Part shown: positions 153-50,202 of the stretch, in pieces
Position numbering within the stretch: position 1 is the first letter of the stretch
Layout: each line of letters opens with the position of its first letter
IMG/VR virus record: IMGVR_UViG_3300021442_000581
Location: 6,218 to 70,217 of that record
Length of the DNA: 64,000 nucleotides
Origin: a virus
Direction: 5' to 3' (one strand)
The notes under the pieces: generated by a model
What the model was told of the DNA's origin: nothing
The model's input: only the letters and a program-made list of their open reading frames with translations
The model's database searches: none
Made by a program: the position numbers and the translations under genes

Positions 153-2860
153 TGGACATAAAACAAATAATAAGTAATGCAATAGACGAAGTATCATACA
201 AAACTTCAGACGGTATGGTTAATCTTCATGACACGTATCACATGTATATGGTTCAAGAAGAATTAAAAAAGCATATCGATCCAGATGTTGTTAATTTGAT
301 TTTAGAGAAGGATGAAGAAAAAAAGCCAGCCAAAGAACAAGATCCAGAAAAGTATCAATCTATTGGTGGATCAGGATATGCTCTTAAAGCAAAACTTGGT
401 AAGGATTGGAAAATAGGAGATGATGTTCCTGCTGGAATTCAAAGGTTTACTAAAGATGATAGCGGCAAATTCGTTCCTCAGGGTGAGAAAGAAGATCCTG
501 AAGCGGGTGCAGGTGGAGAAAAAATGGATTTTACTCCGTCCGATGAGAAGGAAGAGGAAGAAGCAGATTTACAAAATGCAGATTTCGATCCTAAAAATGC
601 TGATATAGAAACAAATCCAAGAACTAGAAATAGTTTAGCCGATAAACTAGATTCAGTTGTTACACAAATTCCGTTTGAAAGTGATGAAGATAAAGCTGCG
701 TTTCAAAGGGTTATAGATGCCATTAGAAGTGGAGAAGAACCTTCAGAAGAAGATTGGAAAATATTTAACAAGTATGCTCGTGTTAAGGAAACTAGCGGCC
801 AGTCAACCCCAGAATTTGCGATATACATTTGCAATACTACTCCAGGTGATTTTAGACAGGGTAGAAGAATTAAGGTTGAAATGCATACTAGTAAGAATGC
901 ACATGATCTACGAAGAAAGATGGAAGCTCAAGGTGCAAAGGCTGCTTCTGCAAGTACTACTGCTGGGAAGGCTCCACCAAAATTAGCGGGAAAATTAATA
1001 ACTATGACTAAGATGGCTAAGTCTAAACACGGTGGTGGAGTAAAAGAACATAAAGTTACCCGAAAACCAAAAACTGGTGGACCAGTACAGGAAGTTAGAT
1101 TTGGAAATAGAGTTTTAAAGAGAATTCCAGAACCGGATGAAGACAAGTTAATTGCTGAAGTATTGGATAGGTTTGTTGAAATAATGAAAGGACCGCCCAA
1201 ACGTAGTAAAAAGGATGCGACAAGATTAGCTAAGAAAAGAATCAAGACTATCAGACGAAATAACAAAAATATAGATCAGTACGAAAATATTGATGTAGTT
1301 GAAGAAGCTAGATTAGTTAAGTTCGACCCGGATGATCAGGATTCTAGTACTCCGGAAGGAAGAGCAAAAGTTGCTAAAGAAGGACCTAAAAATTTAGCCG
1401 CTATGATGAGAGAGGAAATGGAAAAACATGGTCCTCTTACTGAAGCTGAAGAAGCAATGTTGAAACGATTAGAGGCATTGGGTGATATAGACGATCCAGC
1501 AGAATACGAAAAAGAGGCTATGAAATTATTAGCAGATATGCAAAAAGTTGAAAGTATGAGAAAGGGTGTTCCGGATATAGCTGAAGGCGTTATTATGTGT
1601 GTTATGAATAAGAAAGGTTTAGACTGTATAGCACCAGCTGGAGAAACGTATAAGGTAGCTGATTTGATTGTGTTCCCACCAGCAGATGATCCTGAGAATC
1701 CAAATTCGGCAGAATACATAGTTTGGTTGGAAAGTACAGGTGGATTAAGTGTTAAGTGGAAAGGTGGAGCGGCTTCAGGAGCGAGAGCAAAAATTGAAGT
1801 AACGGCATTTCAACATGAAGAGACACAAGAACGGTGCACAAAGCTTTTAGATTTACATAATAATTTTATGGGAACTGCATCGCAACCATTAACACGAAAA
1901 AGAATTGATGATGGAAAAGCAGAATTAGACGAACAAGAAAAATGGGCTAGAGAAAATGATTTACTAAATGATGATGATTACGATGAAAACGGTGATTTAT
2001 TAATTCCACCCGCTAAAACTAAAACTTGTAAACAGTGGGCAAAGGATTCAATAGCGGATTGGCAAGCTAAAGGTAAATTACCGGCTGACTGTACACCAGC
2101 ATTAAAAGCAATGCGTCCGGAGGTAGAATGTTTAACTGCAGAGAATAAGAAATTACTTGAAGATGGATTAGAACAGTATTGTAGGGGTGGAGTAATGTTA
2201 TCTCACATACACAATAGGGATTTAGATTTTCAACCATACGGTAACGCAAATGGTACTGCTGATTCGTTAGAATTATCAAATGGAATAGACTGCGTAAATC
2301 ACATGCACTTTCAACCAAATCCAGGTTTTGGCTTTAAAAAGGACGACAATGGAAATCACATTGTTAGACCCAATGCAGTTTATGCTGGACATTTAGAGAA
2401 AGTTTGTGATGAAAAACCAACTGTTGAAACAAAACCATATTCAGAACAACAGGCTTTAGATGAAACAGGAGAATATTTTGAAAATGATGGAGCTTATAAC
2501 GCAATGCCTGGTTTAGCAGAGGATGAGGATGATTTAGCTCAACAAATTCAAAATGCTCCTGAAGAAATTCTGTCCGATGATGATTTAAGAAACTTGATTA
2601 ACAGCGATGCTGGAGATGTATTAGATGCGGATGATCCCATGGCACATGCTGAAAAGAAAGCTATAGAATATGAAAAGAGCTGGGATTATATAACAAAAAA
2701 TATTAAGAGTGGGAAACCACAAGAGGCACCAATAGTTGTAAGAGATAAGACAGGTCAAATGTGGTTATTAGCAGGAAATACTAGATTAATGGCTCAGACC
2801 GGCCATGGAAATAGAATACCAGTAAAAATAATTGATTATGATGGGGTGTTTAAAACATGA
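152..2860 (+). CDS. Large acidic hypothetical protein with C-terminal ParB/Srx-like domain
   Basis: 902-aa ORF; C-terminal EAPIVVRD..GQMWLLAGNTRL resembles the ParB N-terminal 'GxxR' motif. Confidence 0.5.
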   Translation: MDIKQIISNAIDEVSYKTSDGMVNLHDTYHMYMVQEELKKHIDPDVVNLILEKDEEKKPAKEQDPEKYQSIGGSGYALKAKLGKDWKIGDDVPAGIQRFTKDDSGKFVPQGEKEDPEAGAGGEKMDFTPSDEKEEEEADLQNADFDPKNADIETNPRTRNSLADKLDSVVTQIPFESDEDKAAFQRVIDAIRSGEEPSEEDWKIFNKYARVKETSGQSTPEFAIYICNTTPGDFRQGRRIKVEMHTSKNAHDLRRKMEAQGAKAASASTTAGKAPPKLAGKLITMTKMAKSKHGGGVKEHKVTRKPKTGGPVQEVRFGNRVLKRIPEPDEDKLIAEVLDRFVEIMKGPPKRSKKDATRLAKKRIKTIRRNNKNIDQYENIDVVEEARLVKFDPDDQDSSTPEGRAKVAKEGPKNLAAMMREEMEKHGPLTEAEEAMLKRLEALGDIDDPAEYEKEAMKLLADMQKVESMRKGVPDIAEGVIMCVMNKKGLDCIAPAGETYKVADLIVFPPADDPENPNSAEYIVWLESTGGLSVKWKGGAASGARAKIEVTAFQHEETQERCTKLLDLHNNFMGTASQPLTRKRIDDGKAELDEQEKWARENDLLNDDDYDENGDLLIPPAKTKTCKQWAKDSIADWQAKGKLPADCTPALKAMRPEVECLTAENKKLLEDGLEQYCRGGVMLSHIHNRDLDFQPYGNANGTADSLELSNGIDCVNHMHFQPNPGFGFKKDDNGNHIVRPNAVYAGHLEKVCDEKPTVETKPYSEQQALDETGEYFENDGAYNAMPGLAEDEDDLAQQIQNAPEEILSDDDLRNLINSDAGDVLDADDPMAHAEKKAIEYEKSWDYITKNIKSGKPQEAPIVVRDKTGQMWLLAGNTRLMAQTGHGNRIPVKIIDYDGVFKT

Positions 2861-3264
2861 TTAAGTTAAAGGATATACTTATGTTTGAACAAAAAGTTTC
2901 AGATACGGCCGGGATTATTTTAAAGAATGATACTGCCGGAATAGTTTTATGTAAAGAAGAAGAGTGGTGGGGAATTCCTAAGGGAAGAGTGGATCCTGGG
3001 GAAACACCGCTTGAAGCTGCAGTTCGGGAAGTTTTAGAGGAGGTTTCTATTTTGTTGTCTCCTCATGGTTCGCACGTTAATGAACCAATAAAATTGAAAA
3101 CAGTAGAAGAAAATAGTAGAGGTGGAAAATTTTATATTTTTAAATGCTATGTTAAACTTCCAATGGTACTAAAGAAAAGTGCTGAACATGAAGCAGTCGG
3201 ATGGTTTATGACCCATCGAAATATGCCAGATAATATCGATCCACGAATTAAGGGGCTAATATAA
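2857..3264 (+). CDS. NUDIX hydrolase
   Basis: Nudix box GRVDPGETPLEAAVREVLEEV. Confidence 0.9.
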   Translation: MIKLKDILMFEQKVSDTAGIILKNDTAGIVLCKEEEWWGIPKGRVDPGETPLEAAVREVLEEVSILLSPHGSHVNEPIKLKTVEENSRGGKFYIFKCYVKLPMVLKKSAEHEAVGWFMTHRNMPDNIDPRIKGLI

Positions 3265-3653
3265 TGAAAACTCAACTTCTTTGTACTTTTTGTAAGACGT
3301 ATGATTTTGATGATACAGTAGATCTTATTAAAATGGCTGCGAATGTTGTTTTTGAAAAGATTTACGTTTTTCAACATGTTGATGATCAAGAATCTTTGAT
3401 TTGTACGTATAATGTAGAAAAAACGGAAGATTTTGTTCAGAATAATAAGACTATGGCAATTCATAGAAAAAAGGAAACTAATACTTTGTATACTATCAAT
3501 GCGTTAAATGAAGCAATTCGAAAGGATAACGACGGAATATTAGATAAGAAATTTTCTTTGGAGTGGAGTCAATATCAAAATAGTTTATTGCTCACTAATG
3601 ATGCAGGACTTAACGTAGTTAGAACTAAACTGTATAAAATAGTAAATGTTTAA
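3264..3653 (+). CDS. Hypothetical phage protein
   Basis: 129-aa ORF coupled to the upstream stop. Confidence 0.7.
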   Translation: MKTQLLCTFCKTYDFDDTVDLIKMAANVVFEKIYVFQHVDDQESLICTYNVEKTEDFVQNNKTMAIHRKKETNTLYTINALNEAIRKDNDGILDKKFSLEWSQYQNSLLLTNDAGLNVVRTKLYKIVNV

Positions 3654-3695
3654 ATATTTATATTAAATTGAAACTGTGTTTAAGCGAGAATTGCA

Positions 3696-4166
3696 ATGAA
3701 TAAAAAACAAATACTTAGAAAAATAATTAGAGAAGAAATTAAGAAAGTTATTACTGAAGGAACTAGAGCACTAGTTGGTGTAGAGGCTCCTAATGGTAAA
3801 GTAACTGTTTTCTATACTCATTATGATGGTTACCCACAACATACTGGAAAAATGCTTAAGAAACATTATAGCAATTCTGGAATTGTTAAAAAACTCATGG
3901 CTCTCGGAAAACATGGTGTATCTTTCTTAGATAAGAGTATTAAAGGTGGTCCTGATCATAGCTTTAAAGATCCTAAAAAGGGTGAAACTATTTTCTACGG
4001 AAGAGATAGAGGCGAAAATGACAGAATGACATTCTCTTTTAGAGACAGGGAAAAAGCTGATTTTGATTGGGGTACTGAATATATGTATATTTGGAATATG
4101 AAAGAAAAGAAGTGGTACTATAAATCAGCCCATTCAAATCCACGAGATTGGACAGAGTTGAAATAA
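3696..4166 (+). CDS. Hypothetical phage protein (GTR...YxHYDGYP domain) with N-terminal LRKIIREEI leader
   Basis: 156-aa ORF preceded by TATTTATA. Confidence 0.7.
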   Translation: MNKKQILRKIIREEIKKVITEGTRALVGVEAPNGKVTVFYTHYDGYPQHTGKMLKKHYSNSGIVKKLMALGKHGVSFLDKSIKGGPDHSFKDPKKGETIFYGRDRGENDRMTFSFRDREKADFDWGTEYMYIWNMKEKKWYYKSAHSNPRDWTELK

Positions 4167-4445
4167 TTGGCTTCTACAACCCAAAACATTAACGTTACAC
4201 AAAACTCCATAATAAAATTTGCAATTGAATATTGTATGCAGTGAAGTTATGAACCAAGAGCTTTCAGTTTGAGAGATGAATTAAGTACAGCATATTCAGA
4301 ATCAGAAATAGAAATGATTGAAAGCAGCGGTGGAGTGTACAACGTATACGTTAACAATGATCAGATCTTCGATAAAATAGCATCAGATAGATTTCCAAAT
4401 GATGGAGAGATTTTAGCATTAGTCGAACGATTTAATTTTATTTAA
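4167..4445 (+). CDS. SelW/SelT/SelH (Rdx) family selenoprotein, CxxU motif (UGA at 4242-4244)
   Basis: TTG 4167 ...KFAIEYC-M-Q-(TGA)-SYEPRAFSLRDEL...IESSGGVYNVYVNNDQIFDK..SDRFPNDGEI...TAA 4445. Rdx motifs occur on both sides of the TGA; hairpin at 4261-4275. Confidence 0.88.
4261..4275 (+). promoter_or_regulatory. Candidate bacterial SECIS hairpin
   Basis: CUUUCA-GUU-UGAGAG; the apical loop G lies 23 nt after the UGA. Confidence 0.5.
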
Positions 4446-4526
4446 AAAAGTTATAAAAAAATCACATTTTGAGAATTTTACAGTATATATATTTTATAGA
4501 ATATATATTATTCTATATGTTTTTTG

Positions 4527-4979
4527 AAAATTTGGAAAATGAAAGTGTGTGAGTTGATCGCTTGCACATGGGATTGACAGAAAAAATCCTTTCCAGAAGA
4601 GGGGGTTATTGTTGAGTAAATTCACCCGTGGTGGGTTCCTAAAGGCCGAAGTGCTGGCTCAAATGTGAGTAATAGGAAAACGACAGTTTAGAATTGAAAG
4701 ATATGTCATGAACTATACGAAAAGAGCTACTTTTCTGCTTCATTCTGAGAGAGTGATAGAAATATCGAGATTCTCAGCCTAGTGTTACCTAAAAACCCGT
4801 GAGTGATGGGGAAGGTGTAATGACAGGAGTTGTGTCCACTCCAGCGAAGTTAACCACTTTAAGGAGTAACCGATCGTAACTGATTGGGTTGTTAGCATGA
4901 AGTCAAATAAAATCATTCATGACCCGTGACATTTGTAAGTGTATGCAAATCTTACATCCCCAATATATTTTCCAATTTT
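4527..4979 (+). ncRNA. Large structured noncoding RNA candidate (~450 nt)
   Basis: ORF-free; closing helix TTGGAAAAT(4532-40)/ATTTTCCAA(4967-75); long-range GTCATGAA(4705-12)/TTCATGAC(4916-23); many local hairpins; AT-rich promoter-like sequence just upstream. Confidence 0.7.
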
Positions 4980-4981
4980 AT

Positions 4982-5048
4982 AGAGATTGCCGTACTAGCG
5001 TTTTAGTCTCCACTATATAATGACTTAAAAACCTTTGCGGCAATCTTT
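4982..5048 (+). ncRNA. Long bulged hairpin (small RNA, processing signal or terminator)
   Basis: AGAGATTGCCGTA/TGCGGCAATCTTT outer stem and TTTTAGTC/GACTTAAAA inner stem. Confidence 0.55.
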
Positions 5049-5205
5049 TATACATGAAAAGCTATTATTTTCCATGAAAAACAGTTACAAGTCAACAACA
5101 AATATGAAAAAAATTATAAAAAAATTAACTTTTGAGATTGTTCAAGAATATATATTTATGTATTGAACATTAACTATTAACTAATAAAAAATAAGGAGAA
5201 ATGTT

Positions 5206-5982
5206 ATGGACATTGCCGCAATCAAAGCACGATTAGGCCAACTTCAACAATCAGCAAACAAGACTTCTTCCCTTTGGAAGCCAAGTCCTGGAAAATCTCA
5301 AATTCGAATCGTTCCGAATAAAGCAAATAAGGACAATCCGTTTATTGAGTTGTACTTTCATTATGATATGGGTGATAAATTTTATCTATCACCGATTTCG
5401 TTTGGAAGACCTGATCCAATTGAAGAGTTCGCAATTAAACTTAAAACATCCGGTAACGGGGATGATTACAAATTAGGAAGAAAAATCGAAGCCAAAATGC
5501 GTACATACGCCCCAGTAGTTGTACGTGGTGAAGAGAATGAAGGTGTAAGGTTTTGGGGTTTTGGTAAAATGGTTTACCAAGAACTTTTAAGCATCATTGC
5601 TGATCCTGATTATGGTGATATTACTGATCCCGTTAATGGTAGAGACGTTGTAGTAGAATTTAAAACCAGTGAAGAAACTGGTCGTTCTTTTCCAACGACA
5701 ACAATACGTGTTAAACCGAATCAAACACCGGTTACTGATAATCCAGATGTCATGAAGACAATTAAGGATACTCAGAAGAATATCACGGAAATCTACCAGG
5801 AGATGAGTTACGATGATCTACATAAAGTACTTTCTGAATGGTTGAATCAAGATGGAGAAGGCGAAGATGATTCAGTTAGCGCTAAAAAAGTAGCGATTCC
5901 AGCGAAGTCGACGAATGATAAGGTTAAAGAAGCTGCTACCACCGATGTGAGCAGTGCATTTGACGAATTATTCAATAACTAG
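5206..5982 (+). CDS. Single-stranded DNA-binding protein (T4 gp32-like)
   Basis: WKP..G...IRIVP, YGDITDPVNGRD, acidic tail ending AFDELFNN; strong AAGGAG RBS. Confidence 0.85.
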   Translation: MDIAAIKARLGQLQQSANKTSSLWKPSPGKSQIRIVPNKANKDNPFIELYFHYDMGDKFYLSPISFGRPDPIEEFAIKLKTSGNGDDYKLGRKIEAKMRTYAPVVVRGEENEGVRFWGFGKMVYQELLSIIADPDYGDITDPVNGRDVVVEFKTSEETGRSFPTTTIRVKPNQTPVTDNPDVMKTIKDTQKNITEIYQEMSYDDLHKVLSEWLNQDGEGEDDSVSAKKVAIPAKSTNDKVKEAATTDVSSAFDELFNN

Positions 5983-6003
5983 CACACGATAATACAACAA
6001 TAT

Positions 6004-6032
6004 AATGGGCCCGGTGGTCCGGGTCCATTTTT
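6004..6032 (+). terminator. Intrinsic terminator
   Basis: AATGGGCCCGG-TGGT-CCGGGTCCATT followed by a T run. Confidence 0.75.
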
Positions 6033-6047
6033 AGATAGGGGAAATTT

Positions 6048-7142
6048 ATGTCCAAAGACATACTGGCTTCAGAACTTGCTGATAGCCTAAATTCAAAATT
6101 CAAGGGCCAAAAGGTTGCATACTTTTTGGATGGTTCTCACGATTCACCAACAGATATTAAAGATTTTATTTCTACTGGTTCATCTATATTAGATTTAGCA
6201 ATATCAAATAAACCAAAGGGTGGAATTGCAGTTGGTAGGATTACAGAAATAAATGGATTAACTTCTACAGGTAAGTCACTCTTAGGTGCTCATATTTTAG
6301 CTGAGACGCAAAAGAGAGATGGAGTTGCAGTTTATATCGATACTGAAACATCAGTTAGTCGACAATTTTTAGAAGCAATTGGTTGTGATGTTGGAAATTT
6401 ATTATATCTTCATATTGAAACCGTAGAAGAAATATTTCAGGCGATTGAAGATATTATCTTAAAAATTAGAGAATCAAATAAAAACAAACATGTTACTATA
6501 CTTGTAGATAGTTTAGCCGCAGCTTCAACTAAAGTAGAAATGGAAGCTGATTATGAAAAAGATGGTTGGGCTACTTCTAAAGCAATTATTATTTCTAAAG
6601 CAATGCGTAAAATCACTCAAATGATAGGACGCAATAAAATTACATTGGTATTTACAAATCAACTTCGTCAAAAAATGGGAGTTATGTTTGGAGATCCTTA
6701 TACAACAAGTGGTGGTTTAGCACTGCCATTCCATTCGTCAACTAGAATTAGGTTGAAAAATATGGGACAGATAAAAGATAAGGACGGAAATACAATCGGT
6801 GTAAAGTGTAGAGCACAGGTTATAAAAAATAGAATCGGTCCTCCAATGAGAAATGCAGATTATGATATGTATTTTGATCGTGGAATTGATGATGAAGGTG
6901 GGTGGTTACAAGTTTTAAAAGATTTGGGTATAGCTACCAATAAAGGTGCTTGGTACACTATTGAGTTCAACGGTAAAGAAAAGAAATTCTTGTCTAAAGA
7001 TTTTGTAAGTCAACTTGAAGATAAAAAGTTTAAAGATTTTTTATATGAAAAGATATGTGAAAATAGCATTCTTGAATATGAAAATGAACGTGGAATTGAT
7101 GATGTTGAATTTACCGACGAAGTCATGAACGAAGATGCGTAG
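6048..7142 (+). CDS. recA: RecA/UvsX recombinase
   Basis: GRITEING.TSTGKS Walker A, YIDTE, LVDSLAA, FTNQLR, MFGDP.TTSGG. Confidence 0.93.
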   Translation: MSKDILASELADSLNSKFKGQKVAYFLDGSHDSPTDIKDFISTGSSILDLAISNKPKGGIAVGRITEINGLTSTGKSLLGAHILAETQKRDGVAVYIDTETSVSRQFLEAIGCDVGNLLYLHIETVEEIFQAIEDIILKIRESNKNKHVTILVDSLAAASTKVEMEADYEKDGWATSKAIIISKAMRKITQMIGRNKITLVFTNQLRQKMGVMFGDPYTTSGGLALPFHSSTRIRLKNMGQIKDKDGNTIGVKCRAQVIKNRIGPPMRNADYDMYFDRGIDDEGGWLQVLKDLGIATNKGAWYTIEFNGKEKKFLSKDFVSQLEDKKFKDFLYEKICENSILEYENERGIDDVEFTDEVMNEDA

Positions 7143-9523: not shown

Positions 9524-11497
9524 ATGGCCGAGCCATTTGTTTTATCAGAAGGATTTATAAAGAAATATAAATTAAAAAAACCACCATTTGGGTTTAATGG
9601 TCTTGGGGAATTAGTTTATATGCGAACATATTCTAGAATTAAAAAAGACGGTAAAAATGAAATGTGGTGGGAAACTGTCCGAAGAGTTGTAGAAGGCACA
9701 TATACCATGCAAAAAAATCATATTGATAGTTATCAGCTTGGATGGAATCCATGGCAAGCGCAGAGATCAGCTCAAGAAATGTATGATAGAATGTTTAATA
9801 TGAAGTTCTTACCACCTGGTCGTGGATTGTGGGCGATGGGTACTTCTATTACATCTGAAAGAGGTTTATACGCTGCATTAAATAATTGTGCATTTGTTTC
9901 AACTGCTACTATAAAGGATGATTACGCAAAACCATTTACTTTTTTAATGGACGCAAGCATGTTGGGTGTAGGAGTTGGTTTTGATACAAAGGGTGCAGAT
10001 CAAATTTTAGTTAAAGGTCCAAATAAAGATAGGACCGATGATGAATACATAATACCAGATACTAGAGAGGGCTGGGTTGAATCATTAAGATTATTGATGG
10101 AGAGTTACTTTCATGCGACTGCTCCTATGGAATTTGATTATTCAAAAATTAGATCAGAAGGCGAACCAATAAGGGGTTTTGGTGGAGTTTCAAGCGGTCC
10201 TGAGCCGCTTATAGAATTACATGAAACAGTTAGAAAGGTTTTAGATTCACAATTAGGTGAACCAATTTCAGTTACAACAATCGTAGATGTAATGAATCTC
10301 ATTGGTAAATGCGTAGTAGCGGGAAATGTTCGTAGAACTGCTGAAATAGTTTTTGGTGACCCGAACTCAGATGAATATTTAGATTTAAAAAATTATGATG
10401 TCAATCCACACAGGGAACAATATGGTTGGACTTCAAATAATTCAGTATATGCAGAATTAGGTATGGATTATACGGAAACGTGTGCACGTATTATAAAAAA
10501 TGGAGAACCTGGATTTGCATGGTTAAAAAATATGAAAAAGTATTCTCGTATGAAAAATGGCGGAGATAACAAAGATCATAGAGCATCTGGTGGAAATCCA
10601 TGTTTAGAACAAACGTTAGAATCGTATGAGTTATGTTGTCTTGTAGAAACATTTCCAAACAATCATGATTCATTAGATGATTATAAACGGACATTAAAAT
10701 ATGCATATTTATATGCCAAAACAGTAACACTTGGTAAAACTCATTGGTCAGAAACAAATAGAGTTATGTTAAGAAATAGACGAATTGGATGTTCAGTAAG
10801 TGGTGTTGCACAATTTATTACCAACAGAGGATTAGATACACTAAAGAGGTGGCTAAATAAAGGATATGACGTAATACAGGAGTGGGATTGTATGTATTCA
10901 GATTGGTTTGCAATTCCTAAATCAATAAAAACTACTTCAGTAAAACCTTCAGGTACAGTTTCATTATTAGCAGGAGCGACTCCAGGATTACATTACCCTG
11001 AGAGTCGTTTTTATATTAGACGGGTACGGTTGGCTAAAAATTCAGATTTATTAGAACCATTGAAAAAAGCAAATTATAATATTGAACCAGCTTTTGGATC
11101 TGAAAGATCGACGGTTGTTGTTGAAGTACCCATAGATTGTGGAGATGGTATAAGAACGGCTCCAGAATTAACAGTATGGGAACAATTCAGTTTAGCCGCG
11201 TTTTTACAACGACATTGGGCAGATAACCAAGTAAGTTGTACTGTAACGTTTGATCCAGAAACAGAAGGAAATCAATTACCAGCTGTGTTAAATTATTTTC
11301 AATATCATTTAAAGGGTATAAGCATGCTTCCAAGGTTAGATACTGGAGCATATAAACAAATGCCTTATGAATCAATTGATGAAAAAACATATAAGAAAAT
11401 GTTATTAAAATTAAAAAAATTAAGTTTTCGAAAGGTTAAAGGAAACGAAGCCATTGTTGAACGATTTTGCGATGGTGATGTTTGCGAGGTCTTATAA
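9524..11497 (+). CDS. nrdJ: Class II adenosylcobalamin-dependent ribonucleotide reductase (monomeric RTPR type)
   Basis: PPGRGLW, LNNCAF, GNVRRTA, GGNPCLEQ, VKPSGTVS, C-terminal CDGDVC; no beta subunit nearby. Confidence 0.9.
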   Translation: MAEPFVLSEGFIKKYKLKKPPFGFNGLGELVYMRTYSRIKKDGKNEMWWETVRRVVEGTYTMQKNHIDSYQLGWNPWQAQRSAQEMYDRMFNMKFLPPGRGLWAMGTSITSERGLYAALNNCAFVSTATIKDDYAKPFTFLMDASMLGVGVGFDTKGADQILVKGPNKDRTDDEYIIPDTREGWVESLRLLMESYFHATAPMEFDYSKIRSEGEPIRGFGGVSSGPEPLIELHETVRKVLDSQLGEPISVTTIVDVMNLIGKCVVAGNVRRTAEIVFGDPNSDEYLDLKNYDVNPHREQYGWTSNNSVYAELGMDYTETCARIIKNGEPGFAWLKNMKKYSRMKNGGDNKDHRASGGNPCLEQTLESYELCCLVETFPNNHDSLDDYKRTLKYAYLYAKTVTLGKTHWSETNRVMLRNRRIGCSVSGVAQFITNRGLDTLKRWLNKGYDVIQEWDCMYSDWFAIPKSIKTTSVKPSGTVSLLAGATPGLHYPESRFYIRRVRLAKNSDLLEPLKKANYNIEPAFGSERSTVVVEVPIDCGDGIRTAPELTVWEQFSLAAFLQRHWADNQVSCTVTFDPETEGNQLPAVLNYFQYHLKGISMLPRLDTGAYKQMPYESIDEKTYKKMLLKLKKLSFRKVKGNEAIVERFCDGDVCEVL

Positions 11498-14330: not shown

Positions 14331-14403
14331 GGGGCTGTAGCTCATTTGGGAGAGCGCCGCACTTGCACTGCGGAGGTAGTAGGTTCGATCCCTATCAGCT
14401 CCA
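14331..14403 (+). tRNA. tRNA-Ala(UGC)
   Basis: GGGGCTG/CAGCTCC acceptor with G3:U70; anticodon arm CCGCA-CTTGCAC-TGCGG; GTTCGATCC. Confidence 0.95.
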
Positions 14404-14408
14404 CTATT

Positions 14409-14480
14409 GACCCCGTCGTCTAGTGGTTAGGACATCAGGTTTTCATCCTGGGAACAGCAGTTCGATTCTGCTCGGGGTTA
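14409..14480 (+). tRNA. tRNA-Glu(UUC)
   Basis: GACCCCG/CGGGGTT acceptor; TCAGG-TTTTCAT-CCTGG; GTTCGATTC. Confidence 0.93.
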
Positions 14481-14509
14481 CAAAAAAAGTTATAAAAAGT
14501 GAAAAAAAG

Positions 14510-50044: not shown

Positions 50045-50117
50045 GTACCGGTACCCGAGTGGCTAAGGGGACGGATTGCAACCCCGTTATTCGTCAGTTC
50101 GATTCTGACCCGGTACT
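50045..50117 (+). tRNA. tRNA-Cys(GCA)
   Basis: GTACCGG/CCGGTAC acceptor, U73 discriminator, loop TTGCAAC, GTTCGATTC. Confidence 0.9.
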
Positions 50118-50121
50118 CAAT

Positions 50122-50201
50122 GAGTGCGTAGCCCGATTTGGAAAGGGGGCGGACTGTAAATCCGTTTAACCATCAAGTAGGTTCGAATCCTACCGCACTC
50201 A
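50122..50201 (+). tRNA. tRNA-Tyr(GUA)
   Basis: GAGTGCG/CGCACTC acceptor; GCGGA-CTGTAAA-TCCGT; 11-nt variable region; GTTCGAATCC. Confidence 0.9.
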
Positions 50202-50202
50202 C

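Follow-up and report, generated by a model that had tools for sequence, protein, structure and literature searches.

The window analysed here, 64,000 nucleotides (nt) of the IMG/VR virus record IMGVR_UViG_3300021442_000581 (positions 6,218 to 70,217), comes from a contig of 70,217 bases with a CheckV completeness of 19%. In this window an open reading frame (ORF) similar to Rdx proteins ends at 4445 and the gene of a gp32-like single-strand DNA-binding protein starts at 5206, with RecA/UvsX-like, 5'-3' exonuclease and DnaB-like genes following on the 3' side of gp32; between the two lies a gap of 760 nt. The GC content within 4500-4999 is 0.37-0.42, compared with 0.23-0.27 in the adjoining spacers, and both the length of the gap and its GC-richness agree with an earlier note on this DNA, which had been made from the letters alone and had proposed a highly structured noncoding RNA of ~450 nt upstream of the gp32/replication genes. 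No ORF of 44 amino acids (aa) or more lies inside the gap on either strand, nor does the + strand of 4446-5034 hold one of 40 aa or more. We find that 4527-4979 is indeed a structured RNA on the + strand, and we are highly confident of this structure and of its identity as an internally duplicated variant of manA (Rfam family RF01745). The manA family is already known; what is new here is an enlarged, two-core branch of it.

Single-sequence folding of 4520-4985 on the + strand gives -118.6 kcal/mol (z = -2.0, with one out of 100 shuffles equal), whereas the - strand of the same stretch is shuffle-like (z = -0.15). This is mildly above chance and is weak support when taken alone; the weight of the evidence for a structured RNA is comparative. 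A blastn search in its distant mode found no match to the gap in 50,697 phage records. A gp32 search of IMG/VR supplied 80 loci out of at least 597 matched stretches (all counts out of 80 below refer to these listed relatives), and an nhmmer profile of the gap, run on the 80 loci for finding RNA copies, detected the element in 27, each time just 5' of gp32 (five of these copies are cut by a contig end). A gapped DNA pattern made from the conserved blocks added at least 118 further stretches in IMG/VR, and the profile confirmed the element in 106 out of 117 new loci derived from the pattern. Of 127 copies 84 are unique, and clustering at 92% identity reduced these to the 45 sequences of alignment A1. 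Among them the window copy diverges most, with ~52% identity to most copies and 61% to that of relative L118.

RNAalifold predicted 76 pairs for the 45 homologues, 64 of them with compensatory change. To these we added helix Y, P1B, the inner stem of the terminator and three pairs of S0, which gives a final structure of 99 pairs in 23 helices. With this structure 95.0% of the cells are paired; in the same 45 sequences, shuffling the partners lowers the value to 78.2 ± 0.4%, and sliding them by 1-3 columns lowers it to 36.8-45.4%. Changes on both sides are seen in 80 of the 99 pairs versus 56.8 in the shuffles, and none of 500 shuffles attains any of the five measures used; covariation among homologues, which the earlier note had named as a check, is thus present, and it contradicts the replication origin or degraded ORF that the note had listed as ways to be wrong. 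The alignments were made with MAFFT and are not structure-aware, and per-helix duplex energies, with a strand's own partner or with foreign partner strands, served as a control. Own partners beat foreign ones for helices Y, H, X, P1, P1B and the outer stem of the terminator. Several elements are out of register in the MAFFT columns and have no column count: the 5' stem-loop, H, P3Ab, the outer stem of the terminator and all but three pairs of S0. The RNA strand can be assigned as + because G-U pairs are near-invariant (e.g. in 45 out of 45 and 43 out of 45 sequences). When the consensus is mapped on the window most pairs form; most failures fall at inserts shared by the window and L118, and were mostly re-registered by hand.

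The coordinates of all elements are collected in Table 1. Nearly all helices named in the earlier note sit at conserved, covarying positions in the 45 homologues: 4532-4540/4967-4975 (S0), GGGAT/ATCCC (closing helix C), TGTGTGAG/CTTGCACA (P1), GAAAAG/CTTTTC (H), CTGAGA/TCTCAG (P1B), CCCGT/ATGGG (P2B), GGAGT/ACTCC (P3Bb), CCGATC/GATTGG (P3Bc) and TGTAAG/CTTACA (P5). Its helix 4705-4712/4916-4923 is possible in the window copy but competes there with the position-homologous 4703-4709/4926-4932, and its list passed over helix X (4738-4743/4897-4902), the 5' core (P2A, P3A) and the terminator hairpin.

Table 1. Features of the gap and its surroundings in the window (positions are those of the window unless a contig is named)
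Feature	Position	Strand	Basis or remark
Box 1, A/T-rich 51-nt direct repeat before the RNA	4444..4494	+	82% identical to 5107-5157
Small A/U stem-loop before the RNA body; relatives hold a hairpin of variable sequence there	4496..4516	+	By eye (A1 columns 1-26)
Invariant or near-invariant GUUUUUUGA, directly 5' of the outer stem; the earliest RNA contig begins at 4519	4519..4527	+	A1 columns G15-A23, 45 homologues
Estimated transcript, first RNA-contig base to U-run; putative ends	4519..5049	+	RNA contigs, G-U pairs, hairpin and U-run
Outer stem S0, closes the element: 4532-4540/4967-4975 (9 bp), 4527-4530/4976-4979	4527..4979	+	Sequence, duplex control
P1 hairpin, manA P1 counterpart: 4545-4553/4561-4569	4545..4569	+	7/8 pairs compensatory, 97.4% of cells paired
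Closing helix C: GGGAU 4570-4574/AUCCC 4956-4960	4570..4960	+	100% paired, 2/5 pairs covary
Core A, manA-like P2-P3 module	4575..4700	+	Helices 4-8: 22/23 pairs covary
P2A in core A	4577-79/4610-12, 4585-92/4600-07	+	Stems covary
P3A in core A	4619-23/4691-95	+	Window register set by hand
P3Aa, loop GUGGU	4624-27/4633-36	+	Core A hairpin
P3Ab	4637-41/4673-77	+	Core A hairpin, window register set by hand
P3Ac, loop GACA	4678-81/4686-89	+	Core A hairpin
Long-range helix Y: 4703-4709/4926-4932; alternative register 4705-4712/4916-4923	4703..4932	+	6/8 pairs covary in relatives, 83-87% of cells paired
Hairpin H, between helices Y and X: 4719-4724/4730-4735	4719..4735	+	Duplex own -5.9 vs foreign -2.3 kcal/mol
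Long-range helix X: CUUCAU 4738-4743/AUGAAG 4897-4902	4738..4902	+	5/6 pairs covary, 97.4% of cells paired
P1B hairpin: 4745-4750/4772-4777, with inner GAUA-GAAA-UAUC hairpin	4745..4777	+	Helices 12-14: 3/5 pairs covary in relatives; window register by hand
Stretch aligned to the full manA model (RF01745 positions 1-192)	4745..4960 (G000:C1:10962-11177)	+	40.9 bits, whole-contig search
Core B, canonical manA P2-P3 module	4784..4895	+	Helices 15-21: 25/30 pairs covary; RF01745 alignment
P2B in core B	4787-89/4814-16, 4796-4800/4806-10	+	Stems covary
P3B in core B	4819-24/4888-93	+	Core B
P3Ba, loop GUUGUG	4826-28/4835-37	+	Core B hairpin
P3Bb, loop UUAACCA	4838-42/4863-67	+	Core B hairpin
P3Bc, loop GUAACU	4870-75/4882-87	+	Core B hairpin
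P5 hairpin, manA P5 counterpart: 4935-4939/4951-4955	4935..4955	+	100% paired, 3/4 pairs covary; model positions 163-182
Terminator-like extended hairpin: outer stem 4985-4992/5038-5045, inner 5001-5008/5022-5030, U-run 5046-5049	4985..5049	+	Duplex control, pairing counts
Box 2, second copy, directly before the gp32 leader	5107..5157	+	82% identical to Box 1
gp32-like single-strand DNA-binding protein gene, downstream neighbour	5206..5982	+	Pfam PF08804, E 6.6e-14
RNA-library contig, run X1	4533-5011		Word depth 30.7, 0 mismatches
RNA-library contig, run X2	4538-4991		Word depth 30.4, 0 mismatches
RNA-library contig, run X3	4519-4962		Word depth 24.1, 0 mismatches
RNA-library contig, run X5	4552-4973		Word depth 10.9, 0 mismatches

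Closing helix C, in which GC changes to AU in nine sequences and AU to GC in five, is the counterpart of the GGGAG/CUCCC helix of manA, but it holds two homologous cores here, the second of them wrapped by the long-range helices Y and X. All six pairs of helix X form in the window; it encloses P1B and core B and occupies the place of the local P4 of manA. Helix Y has a duplex energy of -8.1 kcal/mol with its own partners versus -3.3 with foreign ones, and an 8-column insert at this helix in the window and L118 gives the two competing registers of the window copy. The outer stem S0 is weakly supported, the least of the conserved helices: its duplex energies are -8.1 (own) versus -6.3 kcal/mol (foreign), with 31% of foreign partners equal, and its three column-consistent pairs are 90.7% paired. 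For the conserved GUUUUUUGA three roles are conceivable: the RNA may begin there, a protein may bind there, or the stretch may pair with a conserved A-rich linker near 4905-4915; a possible duplex between the invariant U-run at 4520-4525 and this linker (~4905-4915) would be purely A-U. No column-consistent helix was found in A1 for the stem-loop at 4496-4516. A pairing between the GUGGUG loop and the UCCAC loop of the terminator was also considered and dropped (only four contiguous pairs).

At gathering thresholds an Rfam search of the window reports four tRNAs only. Two pairs of adjacent tRNAs, Ala-tgc with Glu-ttc and Cys-gca with Tyr-gta, lie within 14331-14481 and 50045-50202, respectively. 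A permissive scan of 4100-5300 (E up to 10) matched manA at 4787-4955 with 40.4 bits (E 1.1e-08); the sole other match was a chance-level CRISPR repeat (E 8.6). In the 11 orthologous loci searched RF01745 matches the 3' half every time (E of at most 1.9e-07), with six scores above the gathering cut-off (61.2-67.9 bits) and five below it (42-53.1 bits). Among five larger contigs of relatives, all three that carry the RNA pass the cut-off (60.9-73 bits), and the two without the element have no manA match anywhere in their 55-66 kb. We assign the window copy to manA because it is orthologous to copies above the cut-off. The earlier note had seen no tmRNA, RNase P or intron signatures, and no such Rfam match is found in the window or the gap; its guess at a member of the ROOL/GOLLD type or a new class did not hold, as neither ROOL nor GOLLD matches in the 64 kb at gathering thresholds or in 4100-5300 at E up to 10, and the Rfam search returned manA, with the cut-off passed in six of the 11 orthologues.

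The features of manA recur helix by helix. The P1 hairpin (4545-4569) is followed by the closing helix (GGGAU 4570-4574/AUCCC 4956-4960). The P2 internal loop, UGACUGAAUAA / UAAGGU in manA, is present twice in the consensus of the clade (TGACCGAATAA...TAAGGT and TGACTGAATAA...TAAGGT); in the window both P2 loops are diverged (TGACAGAAAAAAT...TTATTGT and GTTACCTAAAAAC...GAAGGTG), and the P2 stems (helices 4, 5, 15 and 16) covary. The three-hairpin P3 junction is found in both cores, with 31 out of 33 pairs of helices 6-8 and 17-21 covarying; the first-hairpin loop is an invariant or near-invariant GUGGUG in P3Aa and GUUGUA/G in P3Ba. P5, with its AAUC-containing loop, precedes the closing strand. 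The local P4 of manA is missing: the P4 columns of the model give non-standard pairs or gaps in loci L036 and L053, and the strands at this place pair with distant upstream strands, forming helices X and Y. A position in the 5' untranslated region (UTR), directly before a gene, is not found in the window, where 155 nt separate the end of the U-run from the gp32 start; it is found in relatives L097, L118 and L179, with an ORF 34-43 nt downstream. In Prochlorococcus phage P-SSM2, manA is a single 198-nt domain (142837-143034, 181.6 bits) located between regA and purL. Weinberg et al. (2010, PMC2864571) put the family forward as a candidate riboswitch of 5' UTRs, and a figure legend of the same paper mentions a candidate manA pseudoknot, drawn with a question mark. 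A manA RNA is also annotated in cyanophage S-CREM1. The accessible parts of the papers found describe no two-core form, no position before gp32 and no own terminator of manA, and the supplementary alignments of Weinberg et al. (2010) may hold such an insert.

The duplication was examined with RF01745 itself and with a covariance model, R1, built from core A only (alignment A2). RF01745 gave second matches, on the 5' half, at two loci: L040 (28.4 bits, E 0.0021) and L065 (19.7 bits in one search and 39.9 bits, E 2.3e-10, in another). The best non-self match of R1 is core B, at its exact coordinates, in six out of seven loci (25.2-16.0 bits, E 0.0024-0.19). The two cores are close in length (107-126 versus 110-114 nt), and the core A consensus repeats both the UGACYGAAUAA / UAAGGY loop of manA and the GUGGUG hairpin loop. 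Taken singly, these E-values are marginal, and the argument for duplication therefore rests on the positional agreement that repeats across loci. We conclude with moderate confidence that the 5' half is a second, diverged P2-P3 core of manA.

The earlier note had also pointed to marine metatranscriptomes, and the element is found there. In 20 public runs from 14 studies (16 of the runs recorded as RNA), 0.33-0.61 of the sampled words of 4446-5205 are present. For four marine metatranscriptome runs, from four studies, Logan contigs were compared over 3500-7000. Each of the four runs has one whole contig inside 4519-5011 that matches the window perfectly (Table 1), and neighbouring pieces reach a word depth of 9.7 at most. 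The bin 5021-5137 has depth 0 in all four runs, with no contig bridging the element and gp32; the bins of 3968-4435 are empty in three of the four, and gp32 contigs begin at 5175 and 5176 with a depth of 8.4-9.2. RNA libraries thus contain the element as a piece of its own, at a word depth above its neighbours and unbridged to gp32. The contig ends (4519-4552 and 4962-5011) are not taken as ends of the transcript.

The RNA is flanked by two copies of an A/T-rich repeat, boxes 1 and 2. The 23-nt core pattern of the box occurs only at these two sites in 64 kb, where 0.11 would be expected by chance; a partial and weaker third copy of the box lies at 11412-11441. A sequence similar to box 1 precedes the RNA in relatives, and relatives that have no RNA (L008, L009, L011 and L012) carry the same box and leader before gp32. 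Box 1 may therefore be a promoter region of the RNA and box 2 that of gp32. The RNA body is followed by an extended hairpin and a U-run. The outer stem of this hairpin has duplex energies of -11.2 (own) versus -4.4 kcal/mol (foreign), and a stem of -7 or lower precedes the U-run in 37 out of 45 homologues; the inner stem is 80.7% paired in the 45 homologues. The hairpin is a putative terminator, a role which, like that of the boxes as promoters, is suggested by sequence. The inner hairpin (5001-5030; A1 columns 557-617) has a U-rich stem and a loop that contains UUUCCAC, or UCUCCAC in the window copy. Its sequence is kept in most relatives, which is unexpected in a simple terminator, and an Rfam search of 11 loci gave no match to it. 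When the terminator stem strands were paired with the rest of the RNA, own and foreign energies were the same (-8.10 versus -8.14, and -11.11 versus -11.00 kcal/mol), giving no signal of an antiterminator. The position claimed by the earlier note, upstream of the replication operon, stands, but the leader that it implied does not fit an RNA with a terminator-like hairpin of its own and a second box before gp32.

Among the 80 listed relatives, the 27 with the RNA have gaps of ~690-810 nt where these can be measured, and the 47 clearly without it have gaps of 84-471 nt; in the remaining six the upstream sequence is too short for a call. A quick tree built from gp32 has 81 rows (the RNA is present in 28, the window included, absent in 47 and unscored in six) and requires at least seven changes of state, four of them forced by well-supported branches, compared with ~22 for shuffled labels. 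The element is thus clustered on the tree yet repeatedly gained or lost, and flanking direct repeats would permit its loss or gain as a cassette by recombination. Of the 106 copies from the pattern scan (loci that overlap in contigs and lineages, so that the counts are not independent events), 75 have gp32 90-130 nt downstream and 17 have it 131-800 nt downstream, six are cut, and eight precede other genes. These other genes encode Hsp20 (L099 and L114), an SLT transglycosylase (L118 and L191) or ORFs with no Pfam family (L097, L145, L156 and L179). The RNA always has the orientation of the next gene.

The nearest cultured gp32 proteins are those of Microcystis phage Mel-JY01 (47.5%) and then of Flavobacterium phages (38.9%), and the clade therefore does not belong to the T4-like cyanophages in which manA was described. 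CheckV completeness is 19-66% for contigs of 55-120 kb (the source contig and five relatives), from which genome sizes of about 180-370 kb would follow for the uncultured clade. A pattern scan of 185,579 species genomes (one each) gave 85 matches, with one true copy (L226), on a 16.4-kb phage-like contig that has a gp32 gene (70.7% identical) and is binned in a Candidatus Pelagibacter metagenome-assembled genome. Probably a phage contig has ended up in the bin of a low-GC host, and we take this as a weak hint at a host, not as a host assignment.

The explanation that we favour overall, at a probability of about 0.6, is that of a discrete and abundantly represented RNA of ~490-530 nt, a duplicated manA variant carried as an autonomous accessory cassette. 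Box 1 would drive a transcript that ends at the hairpin and U-run, and box 2 would drive gp32; the cassette (box, RNA and terminator) would be gained and lost by phages of the clade. The product would fold into a sensor or binding RNA with two pockets, a stable free molecule and not a leader of gp32, and it would bind a small molecule or a protein, either the ligand of manA or some factor of host or phage. An autonomous RNA is favoured because no RNA contigs bridge it to gp32, a second box is present and most relatives do without the element. It is likely that the RNA is an independent, terminated transcript; that it also acts as a free RNA rather than in cis we put at slightly under an even chance.

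Several observations weigh against this explanation or parts of it. The window copy scores 40.4-40.9 bits, below the RF01745 cut-off of 55.2. In the window itself R1 misses core B even at E up to 10, and in the P-SSM2 locus its best match, although it is the P2-P3 part of manA, has 10.8 bits and an E of only 2.2. A simple sigma-70 scan flags neither box, a simple terminator scan (with a loop limit of 8) misses the 3' hairpin, and the U-run of the window is short (UCUUUU). Logan contigs give no starts, ends, strand or level, and RNA libraries may contain DNA. The precedent in P-SSM2 is a 5' UTR position, 15 nt before purL, and some of the copies before genes other than gp32 lack the terminator part and have an ORF 34-43 nt away; both facts favour action in cis. 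Finally, no ligand, partner, phenotype or function of manA is reported in the papers found, as far as their accessible text goes.

The rival with most to say for itself is a cis-acting riboswitch with tandem cores, in which ligand-dependent termination at 4985-5049 would gate read-through from box 1 into gp32 and the replication genes, with box 2 giving basal expression. It would accord with the 5' UTR riboswitch candidacy of manA (Weinberg et al. 2010) and with the P-SSM2 copy that stops 15 nt short of purL. It would also account for the constant co-orientation with the next gene (gp32 within 90-800 nt in 92 out of 106 loci), for the terminator-less relatives 34-43 nt before an ORF and for two homologous cores, which resemble tandem aptamers. 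However, neither strand of the terminator stem shows covariation with any segment of the RNA, no contig covers 5021-5137 in any of the four runs while gp32 contigs begin 3' of box 2, 47 of the 80 listed relatives keep the box and leader before gp32 with no RNA at all, and at least seven gains or losses are needed on the gp32 tree; we regard this riboswitch as unlikely. The absence of the RNA before the same gp32 leader in those 47 relatives speaks equally against an operator for autoregulation. In T4, the structured leader of gene 32 nucleates binding of gp32, which represses its own translation. An RNA directly 5' of gp32 in most loci invites the same explanation, but here a terminator-like hairpin and a second box come between the RNA and the gp32 leader, and the RNA is found also before Hsp20, SLT transglycosylase and other genes (and the family before purL in P-SSM2), which makes such an operator very improbable.

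An equally small chance is left to a large phage RNA of the ROOL/GOLLD type or of a wholly new class: the size of ~450-530 nt, the phage context, the many nested helices and the lack of any Rfam family at cut-off in the gap of the window would fit, but manA and the chance CRISPR repeat alone matched in 4100-5300, orthologues exceed the manA cut-off, and the match to manA extends over P1, the closing helix, P2, the three-hairpin P3 and P5. A DNA-level element (a recombination site or an origin of replication) or the remnant of a protein gene, suggested by the long gap and by flanking direct repeats of the kind typical of recombination cassettes, has almost nothing left to it: near-invariant G-U wobbles make the pairing strand-specific, folding exceeds that of shuffles on the + strand but not on the - strand, perfectly matching contigs occur in RNA libraries at a word depth above the flanks, and the substitutions are helix-compensatory in a gap that is free of ORFs of 44 aa or more on both strands. 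Returning to the autonomous cassette, we may extend it to the family in a tentative and rather doubtful way: manA-class RNAs, or this double-core branch, might not be riboswitch leaders but autonomous, highly abundant phage noncoding RNAs of mobile cassettes that act in trans while the host is infected, e.g. by capturing a host protein or metabolite. Action in trans would explain why the family lies before unrelated genes (purL, hsp20, gp32 and lytic transglycosylase) and why the papers found report no ligand since 2010.

For a family with no reported ligand or function in those papers, the 80 covarying pairs of the two-core fold help to separate the nucleotides of the binding pocket from the scaffold. 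The setting is new for manA, before gp32 in large marine phages that are uncultured and not related to T4-like cyanophages, and an own contig in the metatranscriptomes of four studies questions the assumption of a cis-riboswitch. Diverged copies such as that of the window fall below the Rfam cut-off and are missed by routine annotation. No textbook view is changed by these results.

The protein genes 5' of the gap deserve mention in their own right. An ORF of 902 aa (152-2860) has no Pfam family, and the next one (2857-3264) encodes a NUDIX hydrolase (PF00293, E 4.9e-16). The Rdx/SelW-like ORF at 4167-4445 on the + strand (PF10262, E 4e-10) is open upstream through an in-frame TGA at 4242-4244 and is a candidate phage selenoprotein, in which reading TGA as selenocysteine (Sec) would give a C-x-x-U redox motif. 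In the closest relative, a 35%-identical homologue (L002:1226-1458) has an ATG start and a TGA at the same position. A small hairpin with a GUU loop is conserved after the TGA, at a distance of 16 nt in the window and 17 nt in L002; by the position rule of bacterial selenocysteine insertion sequence (SECIS) elements, a hairpin this close after the TGA is SECIS-like. Folding of the TGA region is no better than that of shuffles, the window has no tRNA-Sec, and its copy of the ORF has no ATG upstream of the TGA. Among the titles listed by a literature search, none is on a phage SelW/Rdx protein.

Compared with known systems, the window RNA is closest to manA as found in P-SSM2. Both have the same order of elements, beginning with a P1 hairpin followed by a G-rich/C-rich closing helix, the same P2 with its UGACYGAAUAA / UAAGGY internal loop, the same three-hairpin P3 junction with loops resembling GUGGUG and UAACCA, and the same terminal P5 hairpin with an AAUC-type loop, and both come from marine phages. 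Hsp20, found downstream in relatives L099 and L114, is a gene class already reported for manA. The window RNA differs in being ~2.3 times longer inside the closing helix (~390 versus ~170 nt), in having an added second P2-P3 core, hairpin H, a second P1-like hairpin and the outer stem S0, and in having the long-range helices X and Y in place of the local P4. Scores are 40-73 bits here versus 181.6 in P-SSM2, the host phage clade is not one of T4-like cyanophages, and what follows the RNA is not a start codon but a hairpin resembling a terminator, and then a second box.

Three further systems share single traits with the element. Tandem-aptamer riboswitches, e.g. the glycine riboswitch, carry two homologous sensor cores in one transcript. 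The two cores of the window RNA, which may likewise be sensors, are joined by shared helices, but they are nested in one closing helix and not placed side by side, and no expression platform competing with a core was found; the likeness would be one of function only. Large noncoding RNAs such as ROOL and GOLLD have the same size class, phage association and autonomous noncoding unit, but give no Rfam 15 match here at E up to 10, and the architecture is that of manA. In T4-type phages, cassettes made of a promoter and a stem-loop shuffle genes. The element resembles them in its repeated promoter-like box around an optional module, its stem-loop after box 1 and its patchy presence; the cargo here, however, is an RNA gene rather than a protein gene, and the box is a candidate promoter that a simple scan does not flag.

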